A stretch of DNA of 64,000 bases from Gammaproteobacteria bacterium (GTDB lineage: Bacteria; Pseudomonadota; Gammaproteobacteria; UBA4575), in NCBI GenBank assembly GCA_965247265.1, contig OZ252002.1, positions 1,962,565 to 2,026,564 on the forward strand. Direction: 5' to 3'. This document shows positions 13,708-57,498 of this stretch, one piece after another. How positions within the stretch are numbered: position 1 is the first letter of the stretch; the number at the start of each line of letters is the position of its first letter. The position numbers and the translations under genes were made by a program. The notes beneath the pieces are model-generated. The model made no database searches, had not been told where the DNA came from, and saw only the letters and a list, made by a program, of their open reading frames with translations.

Positions 13708-13753
13708 GAATGCCTCCTTTGGCGTCGGCGATATCGACGGCGGTGTTACTGGT

Positions 13754-14393: not shown

Positions 14394-14425
14394 TTCACCA
14401 TATTCCCATATTTACGGATTTGTCG

Positions 14426-15630
14426 TCAATCCGTCCCGGTTGGTGACGCATCGCTGTGCATGGAGGACATTTCGGCGGTGCCCGAGAGATCACCACCGAT
14501 GCTGCCTGTGATGCGTGACGCGGCGTTCCGGATCGAATCCCGCGCCAAGTGAGCATAGCGGGCGGTGGTCTGCACTTGGGTATGACCCAAGAGCTTCCCT
14601 ATCATGGTGAGGCATTCGCCGAGCGCCAGCGCGCGCGAAGCGAACGAATGACGCAAGTCGTGGATGCGCACATCCTCCAAGGCCGGCACGCTTGCGAATG
14701 CGCCGCCAGGGACGTTGCAGGTCGGTCAGATGCGAACCGGGGAGCTTTCCGGCGATGACCCACGGGTTGCCCCGTCGCGGGGAATGGATGACAGTACGGC
14801 GCGGGCCTCTGGCCCGAGCGGCACCACCCTTCCGCCGGTCTTGGTATCCGGCAGCTCAAGGCAGTCTTCCTTGACGTACTCCCAGCGCAGATCTCGGATC
14901 TCCGACATCCGGCAGCCGGTCAGGAGCAGCAGCCGGAAGGCGGACACGGCCGAGAGCATCTCCACCTCGGCCTCGCGAAGAATCTCGCCGAGCCGAGCCG
15001 TCTCTTCCGTCGACAGGAACCGCTCTCGTTGGTGTTCCTTGTACCGCTTCACATGCCGGCAGGGTTTGGAACCATTCCGGCGCCAACCCCACACCTCGGC
15101 AAGGTTAAACATCTTCGACAATACTCCGAGTGTGCGGTTGGCCTGATAGGGCTTGTCCCGAAGGCCGTGATGAAGGACCGCGATGTCCTTGCGTTCGACC
15201 GCTGCGACCTGCAATTCCCCGATCACGGGGTCGATGAAGAGCTTCACCGAGCGGCGGTACTCCGTCTGGGTGCTTGGCTTGCAATGGACCCGGACGTACT
15301 CAACCAGAAACCGGCTGCACAGGCCCGCCATCACTGGCTCGGCCTTGCGCCGCGACCTGGACTCGCGGGGTCGATCCCTTTCTTGGCGTCGGCCAGGATC
15401 TGAAGCGCCTGTCCACGCGCCTCGTCTGGGCTCAACGGGTTGTGTGCCCCGATGGTGAACCAGCGCAGCTTGCCGGCGACACGGGTCTGGACGACGTAAT
15501 ATTTCCGCCCCGATCGCCTTACCCGGACACCGAACCCGGTCAGATCGCCATCCCAATAGACGGCGTCGGAGCCGTTGGCCTTCAGGGCATCGACAGATCG
15601 CTTCGTGAGGCGGTGCAGGCCGTTCGCCAT
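14426..15630 (-). pseudogene. int: P4-type tyrosine integrase, 3 fragments (2 frameshifts)
   Basis: N-terminal arm-binding domain ...SVDALKANGSDAVYWDGDLTGFGVRVRRSGRKYYVVQTRVAGKLRWFTIG (15331..15630). Core (14726..15340). Catalytic C-terminus HDLRHSFAS...LLGHTQVQTTARYAHL (14426..14689). Confidence 0.7.
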
Positions 15631-15807
15631 GACGGAAATCCTCTTGACCGGGAAGAGGGAGTTTGTCAGATTGGCAAACAATTTGTATCAAACCAGAGCG
15701 CGCTCAGGCGTAGCCTTGTCGACACTGAAACACATTAACTACAAGAAATATATGGATTTATTAAACTTCGGAGACTTGTAGAGCATTTCTGTCGTGCATA
15801 GGTGTCG

Positions 15808-15855
15808 AAACTCATAACCTGAAGGTCGTAGGTTCAAATCCTACCCCCGCAACCA
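15808..15855 (+). other. tRNA-fMet 3' fragment (anticodon loop through CCA, about 47 nt); attachment-site remnant
   Basis: CTCATAACCTGAAGGTCGTAGGTTCAAATCCTACCCCCGCAACCA is near-identical to the E. coli tRNA-fMet 3' half. No matching 5' half or acceptor 5' strand lies upstream. Confidence 0.75.
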
Positions 15856-15859
15856 AAAA

Positions 15860-15894
15860 GGCCCGTAACTTCACATGGTTACGGGCTTTTCCCT
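15860..15894 (+). terminator. rho-independent terminator following the tRNA fragment
   Basis: GGCCCGTAACttcacatgGTTACGGGCTTTTCCCTTTT. Confidence 0.6.
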
Positions 15895-16041
15895 TTTCGC
15901 AGCCATGACGCGATTAGCGTCGTGGACGCACAGTGGACGCATGAGGGAGCATAATCCTGCACGTTTCTGCGCGACACCGCGCAGGCCGCCCGACTGAGAT
16001 CGCGCGACGTTGACGGCTTACCCGCTGACCTTGGCAGACGT

Positions 16042-19000
16042 TCAGAACCGCATCTGGCCGCGCAGCATCACGGCATGATCCGCGGCAGCATCGTTGGCCG
16101 GCTCACGGCGCTCGCCCTCGAGGCTGAGGTTGAGCGACGACCCGATCTCGAAGCGGCTGCCGATCCAGTAGCGTTGTGACCCTTCGCCGGCCAGCGAGAA
16201 CCCGCCATAGGGCGTCAGCAGCCCGTGCCCGCCGAGCGCGCCGAAGCCATAGCCAAGCTCGCTGTCCAGCCGCATTTGCGGAACGTTGTCATTGGCCGCC
16301 CTATCGTCGCTCGCCAGTTCGGCGACGTCCTGATCCCACAGCCGATCCACCCCGCTCGCTGTCTCGCCCCAGGTCGGGAAGAGGCTGAACGACAGTCCCC
16401 GCCCTTCGGCGCTCGGGTCGAGGCGGACCGAGCCGCCAAGACCCCATTCCTGGTAATTACTCTGCCCCGTCAGCACCCGGCCGTGTCCCTCGACCGTCAG
16501 GCCCGCGGCTGGGTCGCGATAACGCAAGCTGCCGACGATCTCGATGCCGGTGCCCGTGATCCCGTCGCCCCCGTCATGGCGCAGACCCAGCTCCAGGGAC
16601 GGCGTCAGGGACCCGCCCGAGGCCAGCGCCTGCTCGTGGCTGCCCTCCAGCGCCAACCGCAACCGCCAGGCATTCACCGTCTGCTCTTCGATCAGGCCGT
16701 CGTCGCCCTCGACCTCGACCTGCGCCCACGAGGCCTCGCTCCGGAGCTCGAGCGCCATCGTGCCGCCCGCGATCGGTGATTCATCGGTCATCAAGGGACC
16801 GCTCGCTCCCGCCGCCGCCGTCTTGAGCGTCGTGTCGCTGCGCCTTACCGGGTAGTCGGGGTCGCCATCGCGCACCTGCGCGTCCTCGATCTCGATATCG
16901 CCCCACCCATAGCCCACCGTCGCCCAGAGACCGAGACCCTGTGGCGAGGTCCAGCCCAGATAGGGATGAACGCTGGTCATCCGGCTCTCATAGTCGCCGC
17001 GCACCGGCGACGATCCGGTACCGTCGCTATAGTCGAATTCGCCGATCGAGCGCGACAGCGCGAGCCCGGTCAGGAGATCCTCGCGCAGGCAGCCGTCGAT
17101 GCCGAGCTGGCCGGTCAGCACCGTGCCGTCCCAGGCGAAGGCGGACTCCGTGCTCTCCAGCACCTGCCGCTCGCCCCGGCCCCACACCACCGGCCCGCCG
17201 GCGCCGGGTGCCATGCCGTCATTGGCCGCTGCCGCGAGCGGCAGCCGGAAGGACGAGCCAGCCAGCACATCGGCGAGGGTGAGCGCATCGTCCTCGATCG
17301 CCGGCGCGTTGGATCGCAGCGTGTCATAGAGTGTCGATCCCCCGGCCAGCGTGTAGGCGGCCGCCTGTTTGCCGCACGCCTCGTCCATGCGCGCACCGAT
17401 CGCCCGGTTGGTGACATCGGCGAGGGTCAGCGCGTGCTTGGAGAGAATCTCGTCGTTCAGGCGCCGGAAGCGCGCCTGGACCACGGTGCCTTCAGCGTCG
17501 ACGATGGTCAGGGTGGCCCTGGCCGGTGCGCCTTTCGCCACGTCCGTGGGCAGCGTACCGAAGCCCAGCGCCACCCTCACGTCGTGGAAATTGTCGTCTT
17601 GTTTGGCCTGTTCCGTGGCCTCGATGGTGAAGCTCCTGGTGGTGTCGCCCGTCTCCTCGAATTTGAGCGTGACGGTCCCGGTCGCAGGATCCAAGACATC
17701 CGGATCCGTAACCGTAACCGTATAGTCGGCCGCCACGGTCCGGCCCCGCGGGGTCACCGTGATCGGGATCTCCAGCGCGTCGGCCGCTTGCTTGCTCAGC
17801 GTCACCGTCACCCTGACCGGATCGCCGCCCTCTTCGACCGCATAGGCCGCGGCGCCGAAGCGCACCAAATACACCCGCACCACGCTAATGGCCATGGCGT
17901 ACGCCACGCTGTCGCTCTCGCCGTCACTGACCTTGAACCCGAACGTCGCGAAAGGTTCGCCGTGCGCGTTCTCCGGCGGAGTGTAGAGGAGCTTGCCCGC
18001 TTCAAGGTCGGCCGGCGTCACCTGCCGGGGTAGGATGTCGCTGGTGATGGCCGCGCCGTTAAGCGACAGCGTCCCCCGGTCATTCCCCTCGTCATCCACG
18101 GGCGGCGAGGCGATCTTCACGTGGTGCAGCGTGTCCACTTCGTCGTCTGAATAGGCGAAGTCTTTCATCGTAAAGCGGTACGGTTCGTTGTCGTACGTGG
18201 ACACCTCTTTGCTGGAACCCGTGGGGGGGTTGTTGAACGGCGTGGCGTTCGCGGCGGATGCGTCGCCCTCGCCGGCATCGTTCATCGCGCGCACTGCCAA
18301 CGTGTACTCGGTGCCGTTTTTCAGGCCGGGAACGGTGTATCCGGTGGCATTGGTCTGGTGATGGGCGCTGTTGGGGATGTCGGTGAAGTTATCGTCACCG
18401 TTGATGCTGACCTGGTAGCCGGTGATGGTGCTGTCGTTCGGATCGGCCCAGGTAAGTGTAACCTTGCGGTAACCCGGCCCGACCGAGGAAATCTCCGGGG
18501 CGGCCGGCGGCGCAATTGGCCTGGCGGTCACGGTGGATGCCGGGCCGTTACCGGGATCGTTCACCGCGCGCACCGCAAAGGTGTACTCGGTGCCGTTGGT
18601 CAGGCCGGTCACGGTGTATCCGGTGGGGGGCGCATCGGGGTCGGTGACGGCGATGTTCGCCCACGCAGTGTAGGTGCTGTCGTTGCTGCTCCTCACTTTC
18701 GAGCGGACTTGGTACTTGGTGATCGATCTGTCGCTCGGATCGTTCCACGCAAGCACCACCTGGCCGTCGCCCGGCGTGGCCGAGGAAATCGTCGGGGCGT
18801 CCGGCACCGCAATCGGTGTGGCCCCCACGCTGGAGGCTTCGCCGTCACCGGAAGCGTTCACTGCGCGCAGCTCAAACCCGTACGGGCTGCCGTTAGTCAG
18901 GCCGGTCACGGTGTAGGTGGTGGTGGTCGCACTGCTGCCGCCGATGTCGCTCCAGTCGCCGAAATCGGCGCCGCTCACCCTCTGCCGGTACTGATACCTG

Positions 19001-22000
19001 GTGATGCTGCTGTCGTTCGGATCGTCCCAGGTCAGCACAGCCTGCCCGTTAGCCGGCATGGCCGCGAGGTTCGCCGGGGGGGCCGGCACCGGCACCGGCA
19101 TGGCGTCCACGCTGCCCGCTCTGCCGGTGATCACGGTGTCGTCCCCGGACGTATCCACCGCCTGCACCGTGAAGGTGTAGTCGGTGCGATTGGTCAAGCC
19201 GGGAATGAGCAGGGTCGTCTGATCCCCCGAGCCGGGCGAGAGAAACGTTTCCAAGAGCGGGTCCACGGAGTTGATGGGCGTGTAGTAGGTGCTGACCTTA
19301 TAACGGGCGATCCCGGGGTCGCCCCTGTCCCACGTCAGCATGACCTGGCCCTCGCCCGGCGCCGCCACCAGACCGGTCGGCGCGGGCCAGAGCGGCGTGG
19401 CGGTTTCGGGGGACGCCGCGCCGGCACCGGACAGATTCACCGCCCGCAGCTCGAACGTGTATTCGGTGCCGTTGGTCAGGCGGGTACCGGTGCCGTCGCT
19501 CAGGACGGTCACGGTGTGGGTGGTGGTGGCCGCACCGCTGCTCTCGATATCGATGAAGGTCGTGCCGCCGTCGGTGCTGTACTGGTATCCGCTGACCATG
19601 TTGTTGTCCGGGTCGTCCCAGGACAGTGTGACCTGACGGTCCTCCCCCCCCTCGGCCATGAGGCCCGTCGGGGCGGCCGGAAGCGTCGGCGCGGTCACGG
19701 TAGACGCCGCGCCCACACCGGAAGCGTTCACCGCGCGCAGCTTGAACGTGTACTCGGTGCCGTTGGTCAGGCCGGTCACGGTGTAGGCGAGGGTGTTGTC
19801 CGTATCGTTTTCGCTGATGTCGGTGTCGTCGATATCGGCGAACGTCTCGCCGCCGTCGGTGCTGACCTGGTACCCGGTGATTGTGTCGTCGTCCGGATCG
19901 TCCCAGGCCAGCGCAACCTCGGTGGCGCCCGCCGTGGCCGAGAGCGCCGTCGGAGCGGCCGGCACCGCCATCGGCGTGGCGGTTACGGTGGCTGCGAGGC
20001 CTTTACCCGCATCGTTTTCTGCGCGCACGGCAAACGTGTACTCGGTGCCGTTGGTCAGGCCCATGACCGTGTGTGCGGTGGTCTCCTTGTCGCTGTTCGG
20101 AATCCCGCTGTAGTTGTCGCCGCCGTCGGTGCTGACCTCATAGTCATAGTTGCCGATGGTTGCATCGTTGCTCGGCTTGCTCCAGCTCAGCGCCACCTGG
20201 CCGTCACCCGGCGCGGCCGAGAGGTTCTCCGGGGCGTCCGGGATCGCAATCGGCATGGCGTCCACGGTAGACGCCGGGCCCTCACCGGTACCGTTCCCCG
20301 CGCGCACCTCAAACGTGTAGGTCGTGCCGTTGATCAGGCCGGTCGCGGTGTATGTGGTGGGGTGCGTGGGGGGCGTCGCAAAGGGGTTGGGGCTGGTGAT
20401 GTCCGCCCAGGGGGTGTAGGTGCTGTCGTTGCTGTCCTTCACCTTCCAGCGGACCTGGTACTTGGTGATCGTGATATTGCCCGGATCGTCCCATTTCAGC
20501 ACGACCCGGCTGTCACCCGGCGTGGCCGAGGAAATCGTCGGGTCGGCTGGCAGCGGCGGCGCCACCGGTGTGGCTTTCACGCTGGCTTTCACGCTGGTTT
20601 GGGTGCCGCCGGCTGTGGTCGACCACACCGTGAAGGTATATTCGGTGCCGTTGGCCAACGGATGATTGGGATCGAGGCCAATGGAATCGTCAACCTTCGA
20701 CGGCGATGCGCCAAAGGAGAGGAAAGATGACCAATTTACTCCGGGGCCTTTGGTTGTGAGCGTATAGTCTTTGGCTCCGGGGACGCCCGTCCACTCCAGA
20801 TGGACCCGGCCGTGGTCCGGCGTCGCCACAAGATTCGGCGCGGGCCAGAGCGGCGTAGCTTTATCGCTGGACGCCGCGCCCTCGCCGGAAGCGTTCACCG
20901 CCCGCAGCTCGACCGTGTGCTGCCTGCCGTTGCTCAGGCCGGTCACGGTGTGTGAGACGGTGGTCGCACCGCTGCCGTCGATGTCGGTCCAGTCGCCGAA
21001 AGCGCGGTTGCCCCTCTTCTGCCGGTATTGGTACCCGGTGATCGGGACGTTGCCCGGATCGTCCCAGGTCAGCGCCACCTCGCCCCCGTCGCTGCCCCGC
21101 GTGGCCGCGAAGTTCGCCGGGGCGGCCGGTTTCGCAATCGGCGTGGCGGTCACGGTGGCCCACGGGCCTTTACCGGAAGCGTTCTCTGCGCGCACCGCCA
21201 AGGTGTACTGGGTGCCGTTGATCACGATGTTACCGCCACCATCGCTCAGGAAGACTACGGTGTATTCGGTGGTGGTCGCGCTGCTGTCACCAATGGAGAC
21301 GAAGGTCGTCACGCCGCCGTTGGTGCTGTAGTCGTACCCGCTGATCGTGAGGTTGTTCGGATCGTCCCAGGTAAGCAGAACCTCGCCGTCACCCGCCGTG
21401 GGCATGAGGCCCGTCGGCGCGGCGGGCAGAGCCACCGCCGGTGTGGCGGTCGCGGTAGATGCCGCACCGGTGATCTGGAAATTGGTGAAGGTTCCCGACG
21501 CCGCCCGCACTGTGAAGGTGTAGTTGGTGCCGTCGGTCAACCCGCCAACGGATACGGTCGTCTTATTCCCCGATCCGGACTCGTGCGCATTATCCGAAAC
21601 CTGAGTGTTGGTGCCGGTGAGCGTCGTCCGGACCGCATAACGGGCGATCCCGGAGTCGCCCGTGTCCCACTGCAGCACGACCCGGCCTTTGTCCGGCACC
21701 GCCACCAGACCGGTCGGCGCAGGCCACAGGGGCGTGGCAGTCACGCGGGGCGCCGCGCCGGGACCGGAATCGTTCACCGCGCGCACCGCCAACGTGTACT
21801 CGGTGCCGTTGGTCAGGCCGGTCACGGTGGTGGTGGTGGTGGCCGCGCTGCTGCCCTCGATATCGATGAAGTTCGTGCCGCCGTTGGTGCTGACCTGGTA
21901 TTTGGTGATCGTGTCGTCGTCCGGATCGGCCCAAGTGAGCGCAACCTCCTGGCTACGCGCCGTGGGCGAGAGATTCGCCGGGGGGTCCGGCACCGGCGCC

Positions 22001-24405
22001 GGCGTGGCGATCTTGCTGGAGGGCAGGCCGGTGATGCCGGACGTATCCACCGCCCGCACCGTGAAGGTGTATTCGGTGCCGTTGGTCAAGGTGGAAATGG
22101 TGGTGGTCGTCGTGTTCCCCGATCCGGCCGGGACGTCCAAGATCTCAGGCGTCGCGCCGCTGCTGGTGGCCTGCCAATGGATCCGATAATGGGTGATCAA
22201 GGCGTTGCCCGTATCCCACTGCAATATGGCTTGGCCGTCGCCCGGCTCCGCCGCCAGATTGGTCGGTGCCGGCCACAGTGGCGTGGCGGTAATGGCGGCG
22301 GCCGTACCGCCAGCTAAATCGTTAGCCGCGCGCAGCGCCAACGTGTGTGCGGTTCCGTTGGTCAGGCCGGTCACGGTGTGTTCGAGGGTGTTGTCCGTAT
22401 TGTTTTCGATGATGTCGTTGCTGTCGATATTGGTGAAGATCGTGCCACCGTCGGTGCTCACCTGATATTTGGCGATCGTGCTGTCAGCCGGATTGTCCCA
22501 AGTCAGAGTGGCCTTGCGGTCTTCGCCCTGCGTGACCGAGAGGTTCGCCGGGGCGGGCCACAGGGGAATAGCATCGGCGTTGGCCGGATTGCCGTTTCCG
22601 GAAGCGTTCACCGCGCGTACCCACAATGTGTATTGGGTGCCGTTGGTCAGGCCGGTTACGGTGTAGGTGGTGGTGGTCCGACTGCTGCCGCTGATGTCGG
22701 TGAAGTTCCCGCCGCCGTCGGTTCTGACCTGGTACTTCCTGATGGTGTTGTCGCCCGGATTGATCCAGGACAGCGTGACTTGGCCGTCACCCACCGTAGC
22801 CGAGAGGCCCGTCGGTTCGGCCGGTGGCGCGCGCGGCGTCGCGGTCGCGGTGGATGCCTGGCCGGGACCGGAAATGTTCCTCGCGCGCAACTCGAACGTG
22901 TACTCGGTGCCGTTGGTCAGGCCGGTCACGGTGTGTTCGGTGGTGTCCACACCGCTGCCGTCGATGTCCGTCCACGCAGTGTAGGTGCTGTCGTCGCTGT
23001 CCGTCACCTTCGAGCGGACCTGGTATCTGGCGATCGTGTCGCCGCCCGGATTGGACCAGGACAGCGTGACCGCGCCGTCACCCGGCACGGGCAAGAGGCT
23101 CGTCGGGGCGGCCGGGAGCGTCGCGGCGGTCACGGTGGCTGCTGTGCCGTTGCCACCAACATTCTTCGCACGCACCGCAAACGTGTACGCGGTGCTGCTG
23201 GTGAGGCCGGTCACGGTGTATCCGGTGGGGGGCGCATCGGGGTCGGTGACGGCGATGTTCGCCCACGCAGTGTAGGTGCTGTCGTCGCTGTCCGTCACCT
23301 TCGAGCGGACCTGGTATCTGGTGATCGTGTTGTTGCCCGGATCGCCCCAGTTCAGCGTCACCTCGTCGGTTTCATCCGACGCGGCCGAGAGGTTCGGGGC
23401 GGCCGGAAGCGTCGCGGTGGTCACGGTGGCTGCTGCGCCGTTGCCGCCAACATTCTTCGCACGCACCGCAAACGTGTACGTGGTGCCGCTGGTGAGGCCG
23501 GTCACGGTGTAGCTGTCGGTGCTCGCACCGCTGCCGCCGATATCGGTCCAGTTGCCGTAGTCGCCCGCGCCTGTTTTCCGGCGATACTGGTACTTGGTGA
23601 TCGTGTTGTTGGCCGGATCGTCCCAGGTCAGCGCCACCTCGGTTTCACCCGGCGCGGCCGAGAGGTTCTCCGGCGCCGCCGGGGCCAAGGTGTTCCCCTG
23701 GACCCTGATTTGTATCGAAGTTGAGTACACACCGCCATCATCCTCCCAGCCCCCGGTTCTGTCAGACCGGCGCGTGTAGCGGTGATTGCCGATGCTCCAC
23801 TCTATGGCCTTGCCGGAATCTTCGTTGTCGTTAGCCGTCAGGTTCCAACGAGGTCTGGTTCCGCTACCGTCAAACGTCATGTGCACGAAGTATTGGGTGT
23901 TTCGAGTCAGAGTGGCTACGCCAGGGGCGGTGAATGTCTGGAGTCCCGTCCCTATGTTGGACGGGTTGGTCAAGGTGTATAAGACCGCGTTGCTCGGGCG
24001 ACCCGATCCGGTGGCGGCCCCCACCGTGACCGTCAGGGTTCCACTACCCGGAGCCCCCTGCGTGTCCAACTGGATACTTGATAGGTCGTAGCCCCGCGTA
24101 TTCTGGCCCGTGGTGAACCCCTGAGCACAGTCTAGTTCTATTATTGGTTCAGAACCTTGGACACATGCTGTATGGCCGTGGGTGGTTTGGCCCGTGTTGC
24201 TCACGAGGGTTTGGGCGTGCGCCGGCGCCGTGAAACCGAGCGGCAGCACCACGGCGGCGAGGACTGCGCCGATGATTACCAGCCGTGGGAAAGATCTCAC
24301 GGAAACTATCCCCCTGCACGCGCCTGTTCGACACAACGTCGGGCTACTTGCGTTTTTGGCGTGAATTATATCGTTATTCATGTTCGTCTGCTTGCTTGCA
24401 GTCAC
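16042..24405 (-). CDS. giant autotransporter adhesin (2787 aa): signal peptide, about 18-20 fibronectin type III repeats, Calx-beta-like region, C-terminal outer-membrane beta-barrel
   Basis: N-terminal signal peptide ...LGFTAPAHAQT. Repeats of about 95 aa of pattern LPAAP..L.A.....V.L.W..P....I..YQ.R.......T......TTYTVTGLTNGTEYTF.VRA.N..G.G. C-terminus alternates hydrophobic residues and ends ...AVMLRGQMRF (terminal Phe). About 68% GC. Plus-strand ORFs inside are artefacts. Confidence 0.8.
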   Translation of the reverse strand: MTASKQTNMNNDIIHAKNASSPTLCRTGACRGIVSVRSFPRLVIIGAVLAAVVLPLGFTAPAHAQTLVSNTGQTTHGHTACVQGSEPIIELDCAQGFTTGQNTRGYDLSSIQLDTQGAPGSGTLTVTVGAATGSGRPSNAVLYTLTNPSNIGTGLQTFTAPGVATLTRNTQYFVHMTFDGSGTRPRWNLTANDNEDSGKAIEWSIGNHRYTRRSDRTGGWEDDGGVYSTSIQIRVQGNTLAPAAPENLSAAPGETEVALTWDDPANNTITKYQYRRKTGAGDYGNWTDIGGSGASTDSYTVTGLTSGTTYTFAVRAKNVGGNGAAATVTTATLPAAPNLSAASDETDEVTLNWGDPGNNTITRYQVRSKVTDSDDSTYTAWANIAVTDPDAPPTGYTVTGLTSSTAYTFAVRAKNVGGNGTAATVTAATLPAAPTSLLPVPGDGAVTLSWSNPGGDTIARYQVRSKVTDSDDSTYTAWTDIDGSGVDTTEHTVTGLTNGTEYTFELRARNISGPGQASTATATPRAPPAEPTGLSATVGDGQVTLSWINPGDNTIRKYQVRTDGGGNFTDISGSSRTTTTYTVTGLTNGTQYTLWVRAVNASGNGNPANADAIPLWPAPANLSVTQGEDRKATLTWDNPADSTIAKYQVSTDGGTIFTNIDSNDIIENNTDNTLEHTVTGLTNGTAHTLALRAANDLAGGTAAAITATPLWPAPTNLAAEPGDGQAILQWDTGNALITHYRIHWQATSSGATPEILDVPAGSGNTTTTTISTLTNGTEYTFTVRAVDTSGITGLPSSKIATPAPVPDPPANLSPTARSQEVALTWADPDDDTITKYQVSTNGGTNFIDIEGSSAATTTTTVTGLTNGTEYTLAVRAVNDSGPGAAPRVTATPLWPAPTGLVAVPDKGRVVLQWDTGDSGIARYAVRTTLTGTNTQVSDNAHESGSGNKTTVSVGGLTDGTNYTFTVRAASGTFTNFQITGAASTATATPAVALPAAPTGLMPTAGDGEVLLTWDDPNNLTISGYDYSTNGGVTTFVSIGDSSATTTEYTVVFLSDGGGNIVINGTQYTLAVRAENASGKGPWATVTATPIAKPAAPANFAATRGSDGGEVALTWDDPGNVPITGYQYRQKRGNRAFGDWTDIDGSGATTVSHTVTGLSNGRQHTVELRAVNASGEGAASSDKATPLWPAPNLVATPDHGRVHLEWTGVPGAKDYTLTTKGPGVNWSSFLSFGASPSKVDDSIGLDPNHPLANGTEYTFTVWSTTAGGTQTSVKASVKATPVAPPLPADPTISSATPGDSRVVLKWDDPGNITITKYQVRWKVKDSNDSTYTPWADITSPNPFATPPTHPTTYTATGLINGTTYTFEVRAGNGTGEGPASTVDAMPIAIPDAPENLSAAPGDGQVALSWSKPSNDATIGNYDYEVSTDGGDNYSGIPNSDKETTAHTVMGLTNGTEYTFAVRAENDAGKGLAATVTATPMAVPAAPTALSATAGATEVALAWDDPDDDTITGYQVSTDGGETFADIDDTDISENDTDNTLAYTVTGLTNGTEYTFKLRAVNASGVGAASTVTAPTLPAAPTGLMAEGGEDRQVTLSWDDPDNNMVSGYQYSTDGGTTFIDIESSGAATTTHTVTVLSDGTGTRLTNGTEYTFELRAVNLSGAGAASPETATPLWPAPTGLVAAPGEGQVMLTWDRGDPGIARYKVSTYYTPINSVDPLLETFLSPGSGDQTTLLIPGLTNRTDYTFTVQAVDTSGDDTVITGRAGSVDAMPVPVPAPPANLAAMPANGQAVLTWDDPNDSSITRYQYRQRVSGADFGDWSDIGGSSATTTTYTVTGLTNGSPYGFELRAVNASGDGEASSVGATPIAVPDAPTISSATPGDGQVVLAWNDPSDRSITKYQVRSKVRSSNDSTYTAWANIAVTDPDAPPTGYTVTGLTNGTEYTFAVRAVNDPGNGPASTVTARPIAPPAAPEISSVGPGYRKVTLTWADPNDSTITGYQVSINGDDNFTDIPNSAHHQTNATGYTVPGLKNGTEYTLAVRAMNDAGEGDASAANATPFNNPPTGSSKEVSTYDNEPYRFTMKDFAYSDDEVDTLHHVKIASPPVDDEGNDRGTLSLNGAAITSDILPRQVTPADLEAGKLLYTPPENAHGEPFATFGFKVSDGESDSVAYAMAISVVRVYLVRFGAAAYAVEEGGDPVRVTVTLSKQAADALEIPITVTPRGRTVAADYTVTVTDPDVLDPATGTVTLKFEETGDTTRSFTIEATEQAKQDDNFHDVRVALGFGTLPTDVAKGAPARATLTIVDAEGTVVQARFRRLNDEILSKHALTLADVTNRAIGARMDEACGKQAAAYTLAGGSTLYDTLRSNAPAIEDDALTLADVLAGSSFRLPLAAAANDGMAPGAGGPVVWGRGERQVLESTESAFAWDGTVLTGQLGIDGCLREDLLTGLALSRSIGEFDYSDGTGSSPVRGDYESRMTSVHPYLGWTSPQGLGLWATVGYGWGDIEIEDAQVRDGDPDYPVRRSDTTLKTAAAGASGPLMTDESPIAGGTMALELRSEASWAQVEVEGDDGLIEEQTVNAWRLRLALEGSHEQALASGGSLTPSLELGLRHDGGDGITGTGIEIVGSLRYRDPAAGLTVEGHGRVLTGQSNYQEWGLGGSVRLDPSAEGRGLSFSLFPTWGETASGVDRLWDQDVAELASDDRAANDNVPQMRLDSELGYGFGALGGHGLLTPYGGFSLAGEGSQRYWIGSRFEIGSSLNLSLEGERREPANDAAADHAVMLRGQMRF

Positions 24406-24576
24406 GCTGTCCTACTCACCGGTTACTGGCCCTCGTTATGTGGCCTTCGGCTGGTAATCATACCAAAGGGAGCATTCTCTAGACAGTTCTTAGTCGAACC
24501 TGTCAAGTGTCCTAGCCCCTAAACTTGATCCACATTTTAAGAGAGAATTGTATTTTGTAGTGGCCAAGGGGTTCAT

Positions 24577-24942
24577 ATGCGCAAGCGTTTCAAAGAGACC
24601 GAGATCATCAATCTGTTGCGAGGCATTGAAGTAAAGATAGCCGAAGGCCGGGCCGTGCCGGATGCGTGTCGCAGTGCGGGCGTGAGTGATAAAAGCTATT
24701 ATCGCTGGCGTAAGCTCTACGGCAGTATGGGCAGCAGTGAAGTGAAGAAGTGTAAGGAATTGGAGAAGGAGAACGATCGACTCAAACACATTGTCGCCGA
24801 TTTGGAACTCGATAAATGCATCCTGAAGGAAGCGCTGGATTTTTTAGGACACAAGGGGCAGGTCCCGAACAAGTACGCAAAACGGTCATGCATGTCCGTC
24901 AACGCCTGGGGAGTAGCGAGCGCCGCACCTGTCGTATATTAG
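24577..24942 (+). CDS. IS3-family transposase OrfA
   Basis: MRKRFKETEIINLL...SYYRWRKLYG...ELEKENDRLKHIVADLELDKCILKEAL. Confidence 0.7.
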   Translation: MRKRFKETEIINLLRGIEVKIAEGRAVPDACRSAGVSDKSYYRWRKLYGSMGSSEVKKCKELEKENDRLKHIVADLELDKCILKEALDFLGHKGQVPNKYAKRSCMSVNAWGVASAAPVVY

Positions 24943-25724
24943 ATCAACCTCGCAGCACGCAACGCTATGGTTGCATCCAGAATACTGACAATGAGGATGC
25001 CCTGAGACTAGCCCTGGTTCGTTTGGCCAAGCAGTACGGGTGGTACGGTTATCGCAAGATGACCGCCTTGCTTCGCATCGAAGGTTGGCGCGTCAATCAC
25101 AAAAAAGTCGGACGTTTATGGCGAGAAGAAGGATTGCAAGTACCCAAGCGTCATAAGAAACGTAAACGGCTCTACGACCATAAACATTCCATCATTCGGA
25201 TGCGGCCCCTCTATCCACGACACATCTGGAGTGTTAATTTTGTACAAGATCGACTCATCCATGGTCGCCCCTACAAGATGTTAACGGTAATCGATGAATA
25301 TACCCGGCAGTGTTTAATAGTTGCCACGCAGTTTGCGATGACGTCACAAGAGGTGTTGGAAACACTGAGCCAACTCTTTATTCAACATGGAAAACCCCAC
25401 TATATCCGTAGTGACAATGGCGGCGAATTCAAAGCCAGGCGGTTACAACAGCGGCTCACGCAAGTCGGTGTAGAACCGATTTATATCTACCCCGGCAGTC
25501 CTTGGGAGAATGGATATAACGAACGCTTCAATGGCACCTTACGAAATGAAGTACTTAACCTCGAGGTCTTCTATTCCATCCAAGAAGCACAATCAGTGAT
25601 TAAACAATGGGTGCAACAATACAATCACACCAGGCCCCGTCAATCATTAAACTATCGACCTCCTGTGCCCGAAACCACGACACCTGCTCTCTCACAAGAA
25701 GTGGTACATACCAAGGGGGCTTGA
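24816..25724 (+). CDS. IS3-family transposase OrfB (DDE integrase core)
   Basis: ...RRTCRILDQPRSTQRY...HIWSVNFVQD...LTVIDEYTRQCL...IRSDNGGEFKA...WENGYNERFNGTLRNE. Confidence 0.75.
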   Translation: MHPEGSAGFFRTQGAGPEQVRKTVMHVRQRLGSSERRTCRILDQPRSTQRYGCIQNTDNEDALRLALVRLAKQYGWYGYRKMTALLRIEGWRVNHKKVGRLWREEGLQVPKRHKKRKRLYDHKHSIIRMRPLYPRHIWSVNFVQDRLIHGRPYKMLTVIDEYTRQCLIVATQFAMTSQEVLETLSQLFIQHGKPHYIRSDNGGEFKARRLQQRLTQVGVEPIYIYPGSPWENGYNERFNGTLRNEVLNLEVFYSIQEAQSVIKQWVQQYNHTRPRQSLNYRPPVPETTTPALSQEVVHTKGA

Positions 25725-26811: not shown

Positions 26812-27037
26812 AGATTATCGGTTGCGCTTTTACGAGCATCCAAGACCAGCATTAAAAACGTTAAAAAAATACGTTCGTGATGGCGATTTATCAGGCGGTT
26901 TTATTGATAGTAAAGGATATTATTGGGTAGACTTGGACAAAACCGAAATTGAAAATACTCGTTTAGCAGAAGATATCGAAATCGACGAAATTTTAAAACG
27001 CACTCCTGAAGCAGAAGAACAAATAAAAGGTTTATGA
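26792..27037 (+). CDS. small phage protein upstream of and overlapping the integrase (possible excisionase/regulator)
   Basis: 81-aa ORF overlapping the integrase start by 4 nt. Assigned by position only. Confidence 0.3.
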   Translation: MKLLRLKDYRLRFYEHPRPALKTLKKYVRDGDLSGGFIDSKGYYWVDLDKTEIENTRLAEDIEIDEILKRTPEAEEQIKGL

Positions 27038-28185
27038 ATCCTAGAAAGTGGAAGCACGACTTACCAGATAATTTAACACTGGATGAGTCTAAAGGTCGTT
27101 ATCGTTACTGGCATCCTATTAAAAAAAATCGAACCTGGCTGGGAAAAGATAAAGCCAAAGCTATGCAATTAGCTACAGATTTTAATCTTGCTATTGAATT
27201 ACAATTACAAAAAAGACGAATCGAGAATGGAAATCCATACAAAGTTAAACATCTTGTTAATTTGTTCCGTGCATCTGCGATTCATAACGAGCCGTGGGAT
27301 GATGGCACAAAACGTAATTACGAATTTAAGTTAAATGTAATTAATGATGAATATGGAAATCACCATTTTGTTGCTATTGATCGTTTAGAAATTGATAAGT
27401 TTTTAACACTACGTTGTAAAAATGCTGATACTTGGAATAAATGGCGGTATGTATTCATATTGTTATATCGCTTTGCTATTAGCAAAAAAATAGTCGAATT
27501 TAATGAAGCTGAAGCTGTATTGAAAAGATCGACTAGCAAAAAAATAGCATATAACCGCACTCAGAGAATCCCTTTAACTATAGATCGTTTCTGGAAGATT
27601 CATGATCATGAAGAAACCGAACCTTTTATGAAAGTGGCAATGAAGTTTTCACTGGTAACATTACAATCAAGATTTGAATGTGTAAGTGTAAAATATACAG
27701 ATGAACGAGACGGATTTATTTATATTATTCGCGACAAGACATCTGGTGATTCAGATATGGCCTTTATTCGTATCGAAGTTACCGACCAAATAAAGGAGAT
27801 CATTGGTGAATCACGTAACGATAATGTAGTAACCCCTTACATTGTTCATCGTAAACCTAAATCACGCCAACGTCGACATATAGATAACAAACCACACTGG
27901 ACTTATGTTGAGCCTGATTTTATTACCAAGGAATTTCGCAGAGTAATGTTATTAGCATGTCCTGAATATAAAAATACAGGTCGTCAATGCCCTACTTTTC
28001 ATCAAATACGTAAGCTTGGCGCGAATCTGTATTACGACGGTGGCTACACAAAGGACCAAGTACGCTCACTCATGACTCACACAGACGAGAAAACCACTCA
28101 AATCTATTTAACCACTGGCCAAGTACCAGATAATCGATTTATCAAGGTAAAAGCCTCACTTAAGCTGTCAGATTTTAGAACTTGA
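27034..28185 (+). CDS. int: tyrosine site-specific integrase (383 aa) adjacent to tRNA-Gly
   Basis: C-terminus ...RQCPTFHQIRKLGANLYYDGGYTKDQVRSLMTHTDEKTTQIYL carries the HxxR and catalytic Tyr. Transcribed toward the tRNA-Gly 3' end 127 nt downstream. Confidence 0.8.
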   Translation: MNPRKWKHDLPDNLTLDESKGRYRYWHPIKKNRTWLGKDKAKAMQLATDFNLAIELQLQKRRIENGNPYKVKHLVNLFRASAIHNEPWDDGTKRNYEFKLNVINDEYGNHHFVAIDRLEIDKFLTLRCKNADTWNKWRYVFILLYRFAISKKIVEFNEAEAVLKRSTSKKIAYNRTQRIPLTIDRFWKIHDHEETEPFMKVAMKFSLVTLQSRFECVSVKYTDERDGFIYIIRDKTSGDSDMAFIRIEVTDQIKEIIGESRNDNVVTPYIVHRKPKSRQRRHIDNKPHWTYVEPDFITKEFRRVMLLACPEYKNTGRQCPTFHQIRKLGANLYYDGGYTKDQVRSLMTHTDEKTTQIYLTTGQVPDNRFIKVKASLKLSDFRT

Positions 28186-28311: not shown

Positions 28312-28388
28312 ATGGAGCGGGAAACCAGGTTCGAACTGGCGACCTCAACCTTGGCAAGGTTGCGCTCTACCAACTGAGCTATTCCCGC
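28312..28388 (-). tRNA. glyW: tRNA-Gly (anticodon GCC)
   Basis: Reverse complement GCGGGAATAGCTCAGTTGGTAGAGCGCAACCTTGCCAAGGTTGAGGTCGCCAGTTCGAACCTGGTTTCCCCGCTCCA resembles E. coli glyW. The 3' acceptor strand has one extra C (77 nt). Confidence 0.85.
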
Positions 28389-34432: not shown

Positions 34433-35020
34433 ATGAAAATTATTTTGGCATCTAGCTCTCCTTACAGGAAAAAATTGTTAAACACTTTGCTGCCTTCGTT
34501 AACTTGCATCGCTCCAAATATTAATGAATCTTTACATGAAGGAGAATCACCCGCCAAGAATGTAACTCGGCTTTCATTCGAAAAAGCAAAAGCAGTATCA
34601 CATCAATTAGGAAATGCTCTTATTTATTGGTTCAGATCAATGTGCAGAACTAAATGGGAATATAATTTGTAAACCTAATGATCATAATGAAGCATTCAAT
34701 CAACTATCAGCCGTTAGTGGCAAACAAGTTACTTTTTACACTGGCCTATGCCTACTCAATTCAAAAAGTAAGGCCCATCAGGTATGTTGCGAAACATTTC
34801 AAGTCCAATTTCGTGATTTAAAAAACGAACAAATTACAGCTTATTTAAAAAGAGATGAGCCTTATGATTGTGCAGGAAGTTTTAAATCAGAAAGTTTAGG
34901 GTTAAGCACTGTTTAAAAAAATGCAGGGTGATGACCCTAACACACTCATAGGCTTGCCAATGATTAGGCTTATTTCAATGTTGTCCAATGAAGGCATCGA
35001 TGTATTAACAAATTCAGCCT
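34433..35020 (+). pseudogene. maf: Maf-like nucleotide pyrophosphatase with two +1 frameshifts in T-runs
   Basis: MKIILASSSPYRKKLL... shifts to ...IGSDQCAELNGNIICKP...FYTGLCLLN...CAGSFKSESLGL and shifts again to ...DPNTLIGLPMIRL.... The shifts are near 34620 and 34915. Confidence 0.7.
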
Positions 35021-35038
35021 TATAAATTGTTAACTATA

Positions 35039-41872: not shown

Positions 41873-42133
41873 TTGAATGAGTTGGAAACATACTGGAGTG
41901 GAGATAGAACGATGAGTCAGATTGGAATTGACTTGGCATACACAAATGATCGCAGACAATGCATTGATCGACGCGAACGCATAATAAAATCTGAATTTCC
42001 TCTTGTAGATAGTGATGGACGCTTCATTAAAGCCGATCGCAGAAATGCGCCTGATCGCAGGCTTGCCAACATTCAAGTCAAAGAAGTGTCGGTAAATGGG
42101 CGAATCTTTAGTTCATTATTTAGCAACCATTAA
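41873..42133 (+). CDS. small basic protein with duplicated DRR-x3-5-DRR motifs (paralogue 1)
   Basis: ...TNDRRQCIDRRERI...ADRRNAPDRRLANIQV...FSSLF. Start may be at Met-14 (MSQIG...). Confidence 0.45.
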   Translation: MNELETYWSGDRTMSQIGIDLAYTNDRRQCIDRRERIIKSEFPLVDSDGRFIKADRRNAPDRRLANIQVKEVSVNGRIFSSLFSNH

Positions 42134-42359: not shown

Positions 42360-42578
42360 ATGAAAATGATCAATAATGGTGATCGCCGTGGTGAAAATGA
42401 CCGAAGGAACTCAATGCAAGGTGCTCAATTTCCAATTATTACGCGCCATGGTGTTTGTGTGCGTAATGATAGGCGCCGACATCCTGATCGAAGAATTTCA
42501 AAAATAGAAGTAGGTGAAAATAATATTGATGAAGACGCATTTGAGCTTCTCTTTCAAACCTATACCGAAAATCGATAA
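42360..42578 (+). CDS. small basic protein with duplicated DRR-x3-5-DRR motifs (paralogue 2)
   Basis: ...GDRRGENDRRNS...NDRRRHPDRRISKIEV...FELLF. Collinear with paralogue 1. Confidence 0.45.
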   Translation: MKMINNGDRRGENDRRNSMQGAQFPIITRHGVCVRNDRRRHPDRRISKIEVGENNIDEDAFELLFQTYTENR

Positions 42579-42647: not shown

Positions 42648-42845
42648 TCATTCTAAATTTGAAACCAGCCGATATACCGCAATAAGCAACCCAAACCCGA
42701 CATACAGTCCCAGAAGTGAAATAAGCAAAAGCAGCCCCACAGCTGAACTGACTACTTCGGTTCGAACTAAAATAAATACACCAGCCACCAAGCTAGTGAA
42801 TAACGTCATCGTCCCAACAACGATTATAATTTTATTGTGTTTCAT
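42648..42845 (-). CDS. small membrane protein, hypothetical
   Basis: 65 aa with two TM helices. Confidence 0.3.
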   Translation of the reverse strand: MKHNKIIIVVGTMTLFTSLVAGVFILVRTEVVSSAVGLLLLISLLGLYVGFGLLIAVYRLVSNLE

Positions 42846-43027: not shown

Positions 43028-43843
43028 TTACTTGGAAATTGCACACCGAAACCCAATAGATCCATAAATCGATTTCCCACTTACTGGCGGTTTAACGTTA
43101 CGATACGAACTACGTAAGTTCTTTTTATTTTCATCCCAAGAACCCCCTCGCACGATTCTTTGTTTTCCTTTTGCAGGGCCTGCTAAATCGCCTTTTGCAT
43201 AATGGTCTTGAATTGCAGTTTTTGAATACCAATTCATGGTCCATTCTCCTGCGTTTCCGTGCATATCGAAAAGATCAAAATTATTAGGTTCTCTACTCGC
43301 TATTTTCCAAGTGCGGTCTTCGCCACATCCATCTGGTTCGTTTGGAACGGATCCAAACGTGACACCATCATCCAAAATTGCGTGTGTACAATCCACATCT
43401 TGACCCCAAGGGTAGCGAGTAATTGATTCTGCTCTCGCTGCTTTTCCCATTCTGCTTCATACGGCAGTCGCCTACCTTTCCATTCACAATAAGAAAGTGC
43501 CTCATCCCAATCAACGCAATTCACAGGATGATTCACACGCGTTGGCTCACCGACATTACAATACTTATTTCGAAAGTGATCTTTTGGTCGTTTGCATACA
43601 CCTTCAGCCATGCATTCTTCATATTGCGAAACCGTAACCTCATATTTATCAATATTAAAACTCGGCACTATTACGCTTTCACCCCCCCCCTTCTCGTCCT
43701 TCATCTTCCAAGCAGAGATCATCAGCAGGTGAACAACCCATATTGAATTTTCCTTCAGAGATCTTAATAGAACTTGAGTCTGCAATAATAGAACTGCTGT
43801 AGAAAATGAAATATAAAATAGTAAAATTTAATAATTTGCTCAT
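43028..43843 (-). pseudogene. formylglycine-generating-enzyme (FGE-sulfatase/SUMF1) family protein with signal peptide; frameshifts at a G9 tract (43682-43690) and an A-run (about 43442)
   Basis: Three frames: MSKLLNFTILYFIFYSSSIIA...KFNMGCSPADDLCLEDEGREGGG | ...ESVIVPSFNIDKYEVT...NHPVNCVDWDEALSYCEWKGRRLPYEAEWEK | AARAESITRYPWG...MHGNAGEWTMNWY...RIVRGGSWDE. Confidence 0.65.
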
Positions 43844-44263
43844 GCTATGTAAATGTAGTGACCACATGATGATATCCTGCCTTTGAATGAATTTTTTTAT
43901 CTTTAACATAGACAGAAATTAGAAGAATTTGATTGCAAATTATTTTGCTGATCTTTTGCAATTATCTATGTTAATACTTGCTGATTTTTCCATTCTACAG
44001 ACTCTTTAGAAGTTGTATTGTTGACTATAAGCATTGCTGAATGCTTGCCTCAATTTTGAACAACTTACCATCGTACAATTTCCTCCATCCATATTAACGA
44101 CATTCTGCCTCCATTAGTCTCACTGGGCATTTTGCACCTCTTATCCAAGTTTAAACGTACTTTGATACGTAATTGTGAAAGTATAGGTCACAGTTTAGAT
44201 ATCTAAACCAATTTTTGAATTGTCTTAGTACAAGAAATTCTTGTAGAAAAAATTGTGCGTTAA

Positions 44264-44663: not shown

Positions 44664-45074
44664 ATGTATCGATTAATAGCAATTATTTTACTTTCCCTAA
44701 TTGCGAGCAGTTCGCAAGCCTATAACTATGAAATTCCTTCATTTTATATTACATCAAACTGCATCGATAACACTGCTGTTGAAAAATCAAATAAGAATGA
44801 CGGCTGGATATTAACACTCAATTTTTCAAGCGAAGGTGCCGCAAAAATCTATAAATTCAGCAAAGAAAACAATGGGAAAATGGTTAAATTTATCTTCAAA
44901 AGTGATGATTATGAATTCAGAACAAAAACTATGCTGCGTAGTGAAATTACTAATCAAATGCGTATCGAAGGTAATATTTCAAATAAAGAAATATTTAAAG
45001 TACAAGATAAAATTCCTACAATACAAGGTGAATGCGGTGTAAAAAAGCTTGATGAACGCTATATGACACCTTGA
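44664..45074 (+). CDS. secreted hypothetical protein (136 aa)
   Basis: Signal peptide MYRLIAIILLSLIASSSQA. Confidence 0.35.
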   Translation: MYRLIAIILLSLIASSSQAYNYEIPSFYITSNCIDNTAVEKSNKNDGWILTLNFSSEGAAKIYKFSKENNGKMVKFIFKSDDYEFRTKTMLRSEITNQMRIEGNISNKEIFKVQDKIPTIQGECGVKKLDERYMTP

Positions 45075-47261: not shown

Positions 47262-48882
47262 ATGAGCACAACAGATTCAATAGATCGAACAGGTGTGGAA
47301 CCAAGTGAAGATGAGATAAAAATCCAACTCACTTCAATTCTAGAAGATCCTGAATTCAAACGATCCCCAAAAATACAAATGTTTTTGGAATATGTTGTTG
47401 TAGAAACATTAGATAATAAGCAACAATATTTAAAAGCCTACGCCATTGCTGTAGCGGTATTTCAAAAAAGTGATGATTTTGACCCGCAGACTGACCCAAT
47501 TGTCCGCGTACAAGCTGTCCGATTACGGCGTATGCTACAGCAATTTTATTTGTCGTCAGGGCGCGATGATAAAGTGATCATAGAAATTCAAAAAGGCAGC
47601 TATATCCCAAAATTTTATTACCGTAATACTCAAAATCATCAAAAATCCATTTCGCCAGAATTTATAAAAGAAGGTTCATTCCCAAGCATTGCAATACTAA
47701 ACTTTAAAGACCTCAGCACTCACTTTGCGCATGAAAATTTTGTAGATGGAATCTCACAGGAAATATTCCATCAATAATCCAAATTTAAAGGGCTAATTGT
47801 TATTGCAAGAACTTCAATTAATGTTGATGAAAATAAATATTTAGCTACTAAAAACCTTCATAAAATTACAGATGTCCGCTATGTATTGAGTGGTAGTGTT
47901 CACATACTAGAGGATGCCATTCGTGTTTATGTAGAACTTGATGACACCTATACGCATACTAATGTTTGGACGCATACTTTTGATAAAAAGATGAGTGTAA
48001 GTAGCATAATTGCAATACAAGACGATATTGCACATCAGGCTGCTGCAGCCATTGCACAACCATATGGAGTAATAATCCGCAATGAACTCGCAAATTTAAA
48101 TCGTAAGTCTACAAATGACCTAACTGCATATGAACTTTACTTACACTACTATAAATGGCGCCTGACTTTATCACCAAAGGATCATTTGCTAGCACGCGAA
48201 TCACTGGAACAAGCTGTTCAATTAGATCAAGATTTTTCCGATGCATGGGCAGCGCTTGCAATGATCTATGCTGCAGAGCACTTTTTATCATGCAATATTG
48301 TGAAGCGAGATCGTGAAATCCAGCAACTCACTTTTGAAACAGCACGCAAGGCTTGTCAAAATCAGCCCAGAAAATGCTCGCGCGCACTACGCTTTATACT
48401 ATGCCGACCTCATGACCCGTGGGGCACAATCAAGTACAGCGCAAGCAGAAAAAGCCTTTAACCTAAATCCAAATGATTCGCTGTTACTGGCAGGATACGG
48501 AATTCGATTAGCATTCAGTGGGAAATGGAATAGAGGCTTAGAAATGATCGAGCATGCGATGATTTTGAACCCTGCCCATCCAGATTTTTTTCATATTCCC
48601 TTTGTCATTGATTTTTATCATCGCGGCGAACTTGATAACGCACTACGCGAAGCAAGAGAAATTGACATGCCAGACTTTTATTGGACTTATATGATATTAA
48701 CTGCCATCTATGCAGATATGAATGATTCAAACAAAGCGCAGGAAACAGCAAAACACTTATCCACGCTATATCCAGATATTGAGCACCATGCCCGAAGTGA
48801 ACTAGAGAAATGGCAATTGCCCACAGGCCTTATTGATAAAATTTTAAATGGGCTGAAAAAATCAGGCTTACAAATTACTTGA
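47262..48882 (+). pseudogene. CadC/ToxR-like winged-helix transcriptional activator with TolB_N-like and TPR domains; in-frame TAA at 47775-47777 plus a frameshift near 48313-48461
   Basis: wHTH ...PKIQMFLEYVVVE...RVQAVRLRRML. Reading continues in the same frame through TAA into ...LIVIARTS...VRYVLSGSV.... TPR-like C-terminus in a third ORF. Confidence 0.55.
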
Positions 48883-56690: not shown

Positions 56691-57498
56691 GGCACTAGTT
56701 GAGACGGTACTGACAAGTTAACTTTCATGCGTCTGCGAGTTCCAGTAAATACATATTCTATAATGCCGTAACGCAATTCCAAGACGCAAAGGCGTTCTCT
56801 CTAAATATTCGGTAATGCTTTGCTGATACTAAATGACGACCAAGATTGAACAGATTGTATACCGCTGCATGAGCATTTAAAAATCGTTGCGCTTGTTGCA
56901 TCGATTTGAATCGCCGCATGCCTCGCTCTCGAACGCGTGTCGGTTGACGTGAAACTTCGGCTCGGTTATTCGCATACTGAGTGGTATCGTGAATGGACTC
57001 TGGAATGAGTTCTCGGTGCGCGACACCATAACTTCTCAATTTATCCGTCACGATCTTTCTGGGCTCACTGCCATGCTTTTTTATTAGGCGCTTGAAAAAA
57101 TGCTTGGCTGCTTTACCATCGCGCCGTGCCTGTAAAAATACATCGACAACTTCGCCATCCTGGTCCACTGCACGCCACAAGTATTTCTGTTGTCCATGAA
57201 TCTTAACGAAAACTTCATCTATATAAAGTGTATCGCCATACCCTCGGTGTCGACGCTTCAATTGCCTGGCGTATTGAGGACCAAATTTGTTACACCACAA
57301 ACGAATGGACTCATAGCTGACTTCAACGCCTCGTTCAGTTAACAGATCTTCAATATCGCGATGACTTACATTGAATCGATAGTAAAGCCATACAGCATAT
57401 TGAATAATTTCAGAAGGAAAGCGATGACGTTTATATGAACTGATTGATGTATTCATCTAGACATTGTCGCGCAGATGCACTTAACTTGTCAGTACCGT
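56691..57498 (-). mobile_element. IS6-family insertion sequence (IS26-like)
   Basis: Transposase flanked by inverted repeats ACGGTACTGACAAGTTAA (56704-56721) and TTAACTTGTCAGTACCGT (57481-57498). The left flank GGCACTAGTTGAG resembles the IS26 terminus. Confidence 0.7.
56758..57456 (-). CDS. IS6-family DDE transposase (232 aa)
   Basis: MNTSISSYKRHRFPSEIIQYAVWLYYRFNVSHRDIEDLL...LYIDEVFVKIHGQQKYLWRAVDQDG.... Confidence 0.8.
   Translation of the reverse strand: MNTSISSYKRHRFPSEIIQYAVWLYYRFNVSHRDIEDLLTERGVEVSYESIRLWCNKFGPQYARQLKRRHRGYGDTLYIDEVFVKIHGQQKYLWRAVDQDGEVVDVFLQARRDGKAAKHFFKRLIKKHGSEPRKIVTDKLRSYGVAHRELIPESIHDTTQYANNRAEVSRQPTRVRERGMRRFKSMQQAQRFLNAHAAVYNLFNLGRHLVSAKHYRIFRENAFASWNCVTAL

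Follow-up and report, generated by a model that had tools for sequence, protein, structure and literature searches.

The gene for an FGE-fold protein at 43028-43867 on the minus strand of the window (or at 43028-43909, if the annotators' start is taken), where the window is the whole 64,000-nucleotide stretch of DNA that was analysed, is probably a pseudogene of recent origin that arose at a slippage-prone poly-G tract in a genome undergoing decay. Its coding sequence is split over three frames by two breaks, a G9 tract at 43682-43690 and a 1-nt deletion at 43442-43445, and the frame is thereby disrupted relative to intact positional orthologues in related bacteria. The earlier note on this DNA had left the choice between a phase-variable locus and decay. 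The anatomy given there has held up and the tract does vary in length, while the switch is not supported, since both alleles known so far are OFF and no in-frame allele was found. The event is a new instance of an already known kind.

The first segment, in frame A (43679-43867, minus strand), encodes a Sec-type signal peptide followed by about 30 mature residues. It starts at ATG 43867 (MWSLHLHSMSKLL...) and ends in ...EDEGREGGG, after which the frame is closed by TGA at 43679-43681. Directly before this stop codon lies the first frameshift site, a G9 homopolymer (C9 on the plus strand, 43682-43690) that is +1 relative to an in-frame G8; tract, position and the end of the signal-peptide frame are exactly as the earlier note had placed them. 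A 76-aa product of this segment (P0142) is present among the gene calls of the source genome, where the annotators' start is ATG 43909. The conserved start is probably ATG 43867 (MWSL...), because ATG 43909 is out of frame in a contig from a sister population; the sister gene call (P0143) begins at MWSL. The second segment, in frame B (43446-43681, minus strand), encodes the N-terminal half of the FGE-sulfatase domain, from ESVIVPSFNIDKYEVT to LPYEAEWEK, and is followed by the second frameshift site at 43442-43445 on the same strand, a 1-nt deletion in the EAEWEKAARA motif that leaves GGGAAAAGCAG where orthologues have GGGAAAAAGCN or GGGAAAAGGCN. The third segment, in frame C (43028-43441, minus strand), encodes the C-terminal half of the domain, from AARAESITRYPWGQ to GFRCAISK and a stop codon, and its 140-aa product (P0141) is likewise found among the source-genome gene calls. 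Loss of one G fuses the first two frames perfectly and gives the predicted ...EDEGREGGGESVIVPSFNIDKYEVT..., and in silico repair of both sites (minus one G in the tract, plus one base at 43442-43445) yields a protein of 271-294 aa. The two shifts are of opposite sign, which puts segments 1 and 3 in one genomic frame. A compensated double frameshift with read-through was considered and rejected, as the shared frame contains more than 16 stops across the intervening 79 codons. A scan for promoters and terminators gave no signal above shuffle expectation.

The repaired protein matches the FGE-sulfatase family (Pfam PF03781) over profile positions 5-254 of 255, with 162.5 bits (cut-off 23.3) and E=1.9e-47, a full-length match that places it in the FGE-sulfatase fold superfamily. 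Among sequences in the PDB the best matches are human and bacterial FGE (E about 1e-22), PorK and PvdO. A true FGE is recognized by the catalytic, copper-binding cysteine pair in its C-terminal ...GGSxxCHxSYCxRYR... motif. In the alignment to human FGE chains no cysteine of this pair (CxxxxC) is found at either position: the window has GGSWDENKKN---LRSSYR, and the orthologues likewise have no Cys there. The assignment to the FGE-sulfatase family is correct for the fold, which the window protein has in common with human and bacterial FGE (SUMF1), but the catalytic cysteines are found only in the latter. By its sequence, the protein would not qualify as a SUMF1-type formylglycine-generating enzyme, and because the cysteine pair is absent, it should not be taken to act in sulfatase maturation. 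All scores against NCBIfam equivalog models lie below their cut-offs (GldK 91/350, EgtB 88/360, SenA 82/420, and PvdO 69/500 bits). PvdO is likewise exported and free of the FGE catalytic cysteines, but the window protein is far below the PvdO cut-off, and PorK/GldK have the fold in common with a protein that is also far below the cut-off for GldK. No pyoverdine, T9SS or sulfatase context was seen around the gene, and no sulfatase neighbours were seen in the window or in five orthologue loci with flanks of about 3-10 kb. Neither was a conserved partner gene found across the neighborhoods in Neptuniibacter, Shewanella, Thiomicrospira, and Marinobacterium, so that no functional inference is possible from them. 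About 10 conserved cysteines together with the signal peptide suggest that the predicted product is probably a disulfide-rich periplasmic protein. Proteins diversified by DGRs carry their variable region at the C-terminus. Such a variable protein was considered for this FGE/CLec fold (PDB 2y3c is among the matches) and was rejected, as the C-terminus is invariant among orthologues.

The nearest proteins in a collection of 5.8 billion clusters are 72-75% identical, 264-284 aa long, and intact. In four contigs of related uncultured Gammaproteobacteria (L001, L002, L003, and L026) the intact gene adjoins most or all of the genes that are its neighbors in the window, and it is on account of these shared neighbors that the copies are regarded as positional orthologues. 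The shared genes encode a 65-aa membrane protein, small 'DRR' proteins, an amidohydrolase, a low-molecular-weight phosphotyrosine phosphatase (LMW-PTP), and RNase E, and where the locus reaches far enough also RluC, SppA, and PlsX; on the opposite flank of the gene synteny ends. The 65-aa membrane protein (42648-42845, minus strand) is the conserved downstream neighbor and has the same order and orientation in L001, L002, and L026. The 'DRR...PDRR'-rich small ORFs are paralogous, encode 86 and 72 aa (41873-42133 and 42360-42578, plus strand), have no Pfam match, and keep their position in L001, L002, L003, L026, and L071. Each of 15 aligned orthologues is one single ORF, and neither site is shifted in the loci inspected. 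The repaired window protein keeps 122 of the 122 residues that are invariant among these 15.

The G9 tract at 43682-43690 is the longest G/C run of the window. Within the low-GC part (39 kb, 38% GC) the second-longest G/C run has 6 bases, and the number of runs of at least 9 expected there is 0.023 by an analytic estimate from a first-order Markov model; shuffling the whole window with its dinucleotides preserved yields 0.18, a value inflated by a high-GC island. For a 2.76-Mb genome of such composition about 1.6 runs of at least 9 are expected by chance, so the tract is unusual locally and not extraordinary genome-wide. At the tract site orthologues have DEGxxGGxxVxVPxF, which is one residue shorter than in the protein repaired by removal of one G, and their DNA reads GGN GGN with at most G5. 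As intact syntenic orthologues carry such sequences, the tract is specific to this lineage, and the ancestral state would have been about GGG GGT (G5). The G9 tract is 4 nt longer than this ancestral GGG GGT: G5 and G8 are in frame, the latter with one extra Gly, and G9 is shifted by +1.

A second allele of the tract comes from a sister population. A 61-aa ENA protein falls into the same cluster as the 76-aa fragment and is encoded on a contig of 1,090 bp (L064, assembly ERZ27248692) that aligns to the window at 44562-43473 with 93.4% identity overall and about 97% within the FGE-fold gene. The tract on this contig is G6 (GAA GGG GGG TGA), 3 nt shorter than G9 and in the same out-of-frame phase. 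Comparison of tract length, which the earlier note had proposed for isolates, shows the tract to be variable between these populations, and its length has changed at least twice in a short evolutionary time. Searches of 5.8 billion protein clusters, GTDB representative genomes, and JGI contigs gave no ON allele and no full-length protein with more than 77% identity; the scans of GTDB genomes and JGI metagenomes returned nothing above 72% identity, and hence no sister alleles.

Aside from the two shifts, the coding sequence displays no decay. Window and sister gene differ by nine non-synonymous and five synonymous substitutions, and with only 14 substitutions the resulting omega of 0.42 is not significantly below 1 (P=0.11). 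The six replacements in the mature region all lie at variable columns and introduce residues that are seen in orthologues (P about 0.04), and the gene segment has diverged by 3.6%, vs. 7.4% for the remainder of the sister contig (Fisher P=0.016). Since conserved sites are untouched and the divergence of the gene is low, purifying selection has probably acted on the FGE-fold gene during most of the period after the populations split. Either the tract was hit independently and recently in both populations, or the gene is still under selection or switching; the untouched conserved sites fit a very recent inactivation.

The second shift, which the earlier note had put about 240 nt downstream of the tract, lies 237 nt downstream of it, within the invariant peptide EAEWEKAARA. 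The window reads TGG GAA AAG CAG, and orthologues read TGG GAA AAA GCN or TGG GAA AAG GCN. A lesion in an A4/A5 run had been proposed. There is indeed a 1-nt deletion at this site, and the base lost may have been one of the A5 run or one of the GG pair, because orthologues have GAAAAAGC or GAAAAGGC. With this lesion present, a G8 allele would still give a truncated product, with an out-of-frame end at 43300. Slippage in the tract alone can therefore not recover the window copy, and the tract is no longer a switch here, which bears out the argument that the second lesion speaks for pseudogenisation. Coverage by the sister contig stops at 43473, 28 nt short of the second lesion, and no sister fragment over this site was found with a 140-aa C-terminal query or among contigs reached via neighboring genes; the contigs so reached (L069, L070, and L071) run away from the FGE-fold gene or end before it. 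One candidate fragment, P0203 (93% identity over 31%), was rejected as a non-syntenic, internally deleted copy in another organism. We infer that the second lesion is real.

Two other genes of the window show ordinary decay by two lesions each. The Maf gene (34433-35025, plus strand) carries two 1-nt insertions (34623 and 34904) and is intact, with 196 aa, in a 99%-identical JGI contig (L063). A gene for a TPR protein (47262-48882, plus strand) is split in three by a TTA>TAA change at 47775-47777 and a 1-nt insertion at 48353, and is intact in the sister population (539 aa; P0145 on L065). The lesions in both genes lie outside long homopolymers, and one of them is a nonsense substitution. UvrC, RNase E, SppA, RluC, the amidohydrolase, and LMW-PTP have full-length domain matches and are unbroken, the best match of UvrC being 83% identical. 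In 9.2 kb of alignment between the window and the sister population, frameshifting indels within gene bodies are found only in Maf, the TPR gene, and the FGE-fold gene; other indels are intergenic or lie within the last few codons of genes. Lesions that come two per gene and in non-essential genes have the look of real pseudogenes and not of random error.

Single-base length differences between the populations at 45040, 45164, and 46606 fall in the last few codons of three genes and look like natural, tolerated C-terminal frameshift polymorphisms. The first of these (A6/A7) separates 136-aa from 129-aa variants of a SecDF-P1-head-like protein (44664-45074), and the other two are located at the 3' ends of the genes for a MORN-repeat protein and MarR. 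The window also contains transposases of the IS3 and IS6 types and an integrase that is truncated. In this integrase, of phage type (49204-50280), just the final third of the arm-binding domain is left (profile positions 51-82 of 83), and the IS6-like transposase (232 aa, 56758-57456) has relatives with at least 90% identity on other metagenome contigs.

The FGE-fold family is dispensable elsewhere too, because in the orthologue of Marinobacterium jannaschii DSM 6295 an in-frame TAG takes the place of the invariant Trp codon of the NCVDW motif (L022:10331-10333) and an internally deleted copy is present in another marine lineage. The former inactivation is independent and concerns the genome of a cultured strain. 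In the latter (L066:10001-10270; also L067 and L068) an 89-aa remnant is left, in which an internal deletion has fused the signal peptide directly to the last 45 or so residues. The remnant of L066 lies downstream of a gene for an ECF-type sigma factor and a 209-aa ORF.

These observations are best explained by a sequence of steps in which a gene for a Sec-exported periplasmic protein of the FGE-sulfatase/C-type-lectin-like fold would have acquired a pure G run from a GGN GGN glycine codon pair in this lineage, and slipped-strand mispairing at this run would have put the gene out of frame. The run would later have changed in length again, to G6 in one population and to G9 in the window, and the second 1-nt deletion, in the EAEWEKAARA motif, would have come afterwards, the FGE-fold gene being one of the losses in a general decay of genes in this genome. 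The mechanism of slippage, the order of events, and the absence of selective switching are what we infer from the alleles compared.

Homopolymer-seeded pseudogenes of host-restricted or otherwise decaying genomes resemble the present case: short runs carry single-base indels, each dead gene has several lesions, IS elements are present, and relatives keep intact orthologues; unlike such genomes, that of the window organism, with 2.76 Mb, is not strongly reduced. The closest analogues are the capC/capD autotransporter genes and cj0046/cj0676 of Campylobacter and, at the protein level, non-catalytic FGE-fold paralogues such as PvdO. The Campylobacter genes have in common with the FGE-fold gene an intragenic tract of about G9, an AT-rich genome, and a tract length that varies by lineage. 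However, they belong to a different gene family, and Campylobacter, which is without mismatch repair, has dozens of such tracts, vs. one visible in 39 kb here, in an uncultured marine gammaproteobacterium. The genes capC/capD, cj0046, and cj0676 are listed in annotations as pseudogenes and have extra lesions, so that a change of the tract is not restorative, and this has been described as lineage-specific decay and not as phase variation (PMC7168839, PMC8355987). In Campylobacter, length changes of poly-G tracts are biased towards insertion at G8 and towards deletion from G11 upwards, and this keeps the tracts around G9-G10; poly-G tracts are also found in genes that decay lineage by lineage (PMC8355987, PMC7168839). 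Given this length bias and the occurrence of poly-G tracts in decaying genes, a G9 tract in a dead gene is an expected neutral outcome.

An unlikely alternative to decay is a phase-variable locus mediated by a simple sequence repeat, in which the poly-G tract switches an exported FGE-fold protein ON and OFF, both sampled populations are OFF by chance, and the second shift would have arisen as a terminal hit in one strain or through an error of sequencing. Two features of contingency loci are indeed present, namely a hypermutable repeat of sufficient length (G9, with G6 in the sister) and length variation between populations that are 93-97% identical here. In known systems a length of G9 suffices for slippage at high rates, and every stepwise path between G6 and G9 crosses the in-frame G8. 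The tract is situated in the 5' part of the ORF, right after the signal peptide, and an early site in the ORF of an exported protein is the classic position of a contingency tract. The main point in favor of switching, which at the same time counts against decay, is the fully conserved coding sequence, with all 122 invariant residues kept, substitutions away from conserved sites, and a gene less divergent than its flank. A further point against decay is that only the window assembly shows the second lesion. It is improbable, on our assessment, that the locus is a working contingency switch whose clean coding sequence reflects continuing selection, with a window copy that is just dead or has a miscalled A-run.

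Decay is preferred over switching because no in-frame allele was found, which leaves all collections searched without an ON state to set beside the OFF states, and because the G6 of the sister is short for an efficient switch. The second frameshift adds to this: with it the remainder of the ORF is not intact, G8 would remain truncated, and the window copy is non-switchable. Apart from the tract, no G/C run exceeds 6 in the 39 kb of native DNA, which gives no sign of a multi-locus phasome, and the plain two-lesion decay of the nearby Maf and TPR genes in the same genome and the dispensability of the family elsewhere point in the same direction. In the library of papers searched, no work joins formylglycine-generating enzyme with phase-variable, and we know of no earlier phase-variable member of the FGE-fold family.

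An artefact of sequencing or assembly, by which the gene would be intact and both shifts homopolymer miscalls of a long-read assembly, is very improbable. Both lesions are located in or beside homopolymers, the source is one 2.76-Mb contig that was probably built from long reads, and the exact length of the G9 tract and the state of the A-run depend on one assembly. Against this, the tract is also out of frame (as G6) in the separately assembled sister contig, so the first shift is not an artefact of the window assembly; the contig names of the k141_ form presumably indicate a short-read MEGAHIT assembly. The window has about 200 A/T runs of 5 and yet its long housekeeping genes are unbroken, the A6 state of the window at 45040 is common to four independently assembled members of the 136-aa cluster, and the other broken genes contain a nonsense substitution and indels outside homopolymers. 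An artefact is unlikely for the first lesion, and the second may be one.

Hardly credible, finally, is recoding of the gene as it stands, either by +1 ribosomal slippage at GGG_UGA, prfB-like and with the G run as an internal Shine-Dalgarno stimulator, together with -1 slippage of tRNA-Lys at GAA_AAG, or by slippage of RNA polymerase on G9, from which a certain amount of full-length protein would result. The sites of prfB and of the dnaX type are established models of frameshifting, the junction GGG followed by TGA A is kept in both populations, and +1 at this junction and -1 at A_AAG would each restore the conserved peptide exactly. However, the orthologues are all unshifted, in place of the conservation of the frameshift site expected by analogy with prfB, two low-efficiency events in series would give a negligible amount of product, and any homopolymer indel trivially makes such 'slippery' sites.

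The appropriate annotation for the locus is that of a pseudogene for an FGE-fold protein, and not for a demonstrated sulfatase maturase. Beyond annotation its importance is small. It offers a small, clear example of how a Gly-Gly codon pair may turn into a slippage-prone poly-G tract, lead to inactivation, and go on changing in length. Together, the Maf and TPR pseudogenes and the IS elements suggest that the lineage is at present actively losing genes, and this may bear on its lifestyle. If the phase-variable reading were true, it would add a new protein family and an environmental gammaproteobacterium to the biology of contingency loci.

Some further features of the window lie apart from the FGE-fold gene. 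Two stretches of high GC content (53-69% GC, at 2000-5100 and 9000-25000) are found in this genome of about 38% GC, and the high-GC region is probably an acquired genomic island. A protein of 2,787 aa with at least 17 fibronectin-III repeats is encoded there (16042-24405, minus strand), and its gene contains runs of G7, G7, and C8 yet is intact; it is followed by IS3-type orfA/orfB at 24577-25724. Integrase-like genes are located at 14726-15691 and 27034-28185, the latter adjoining a tRNA-Gly gene (28313-28388). Overlapping ORFs, all on the minus strand, form a chain at 10020-13707 that matches part of the N-terminal domain of UvrD-helicase (profile positions 178-270 of 271) and, in the C-terminal part only, the AAA_15/AAA_21 ATPases; it looks like a frameshifted pair of ATPase and helicase genes, possibly a degraded defence system. 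Likewise in high-GC DNA (2671-5116, minus strand), a gene for myo-inositol-1-phosphate synthase stands beside a fused gene (441 aa) for NTP_transf_3 and CDP-alcohol phosphatidyltransferase domains, a pair that we take to resemble IPCT/DIPPS of di-myo-inositol-phosphate synthesis or a phosphatidylinositol-type synthesis, and an IPCT/DIPPS-like pair is unexpected in a low-GC marine gammaproteobacterium.
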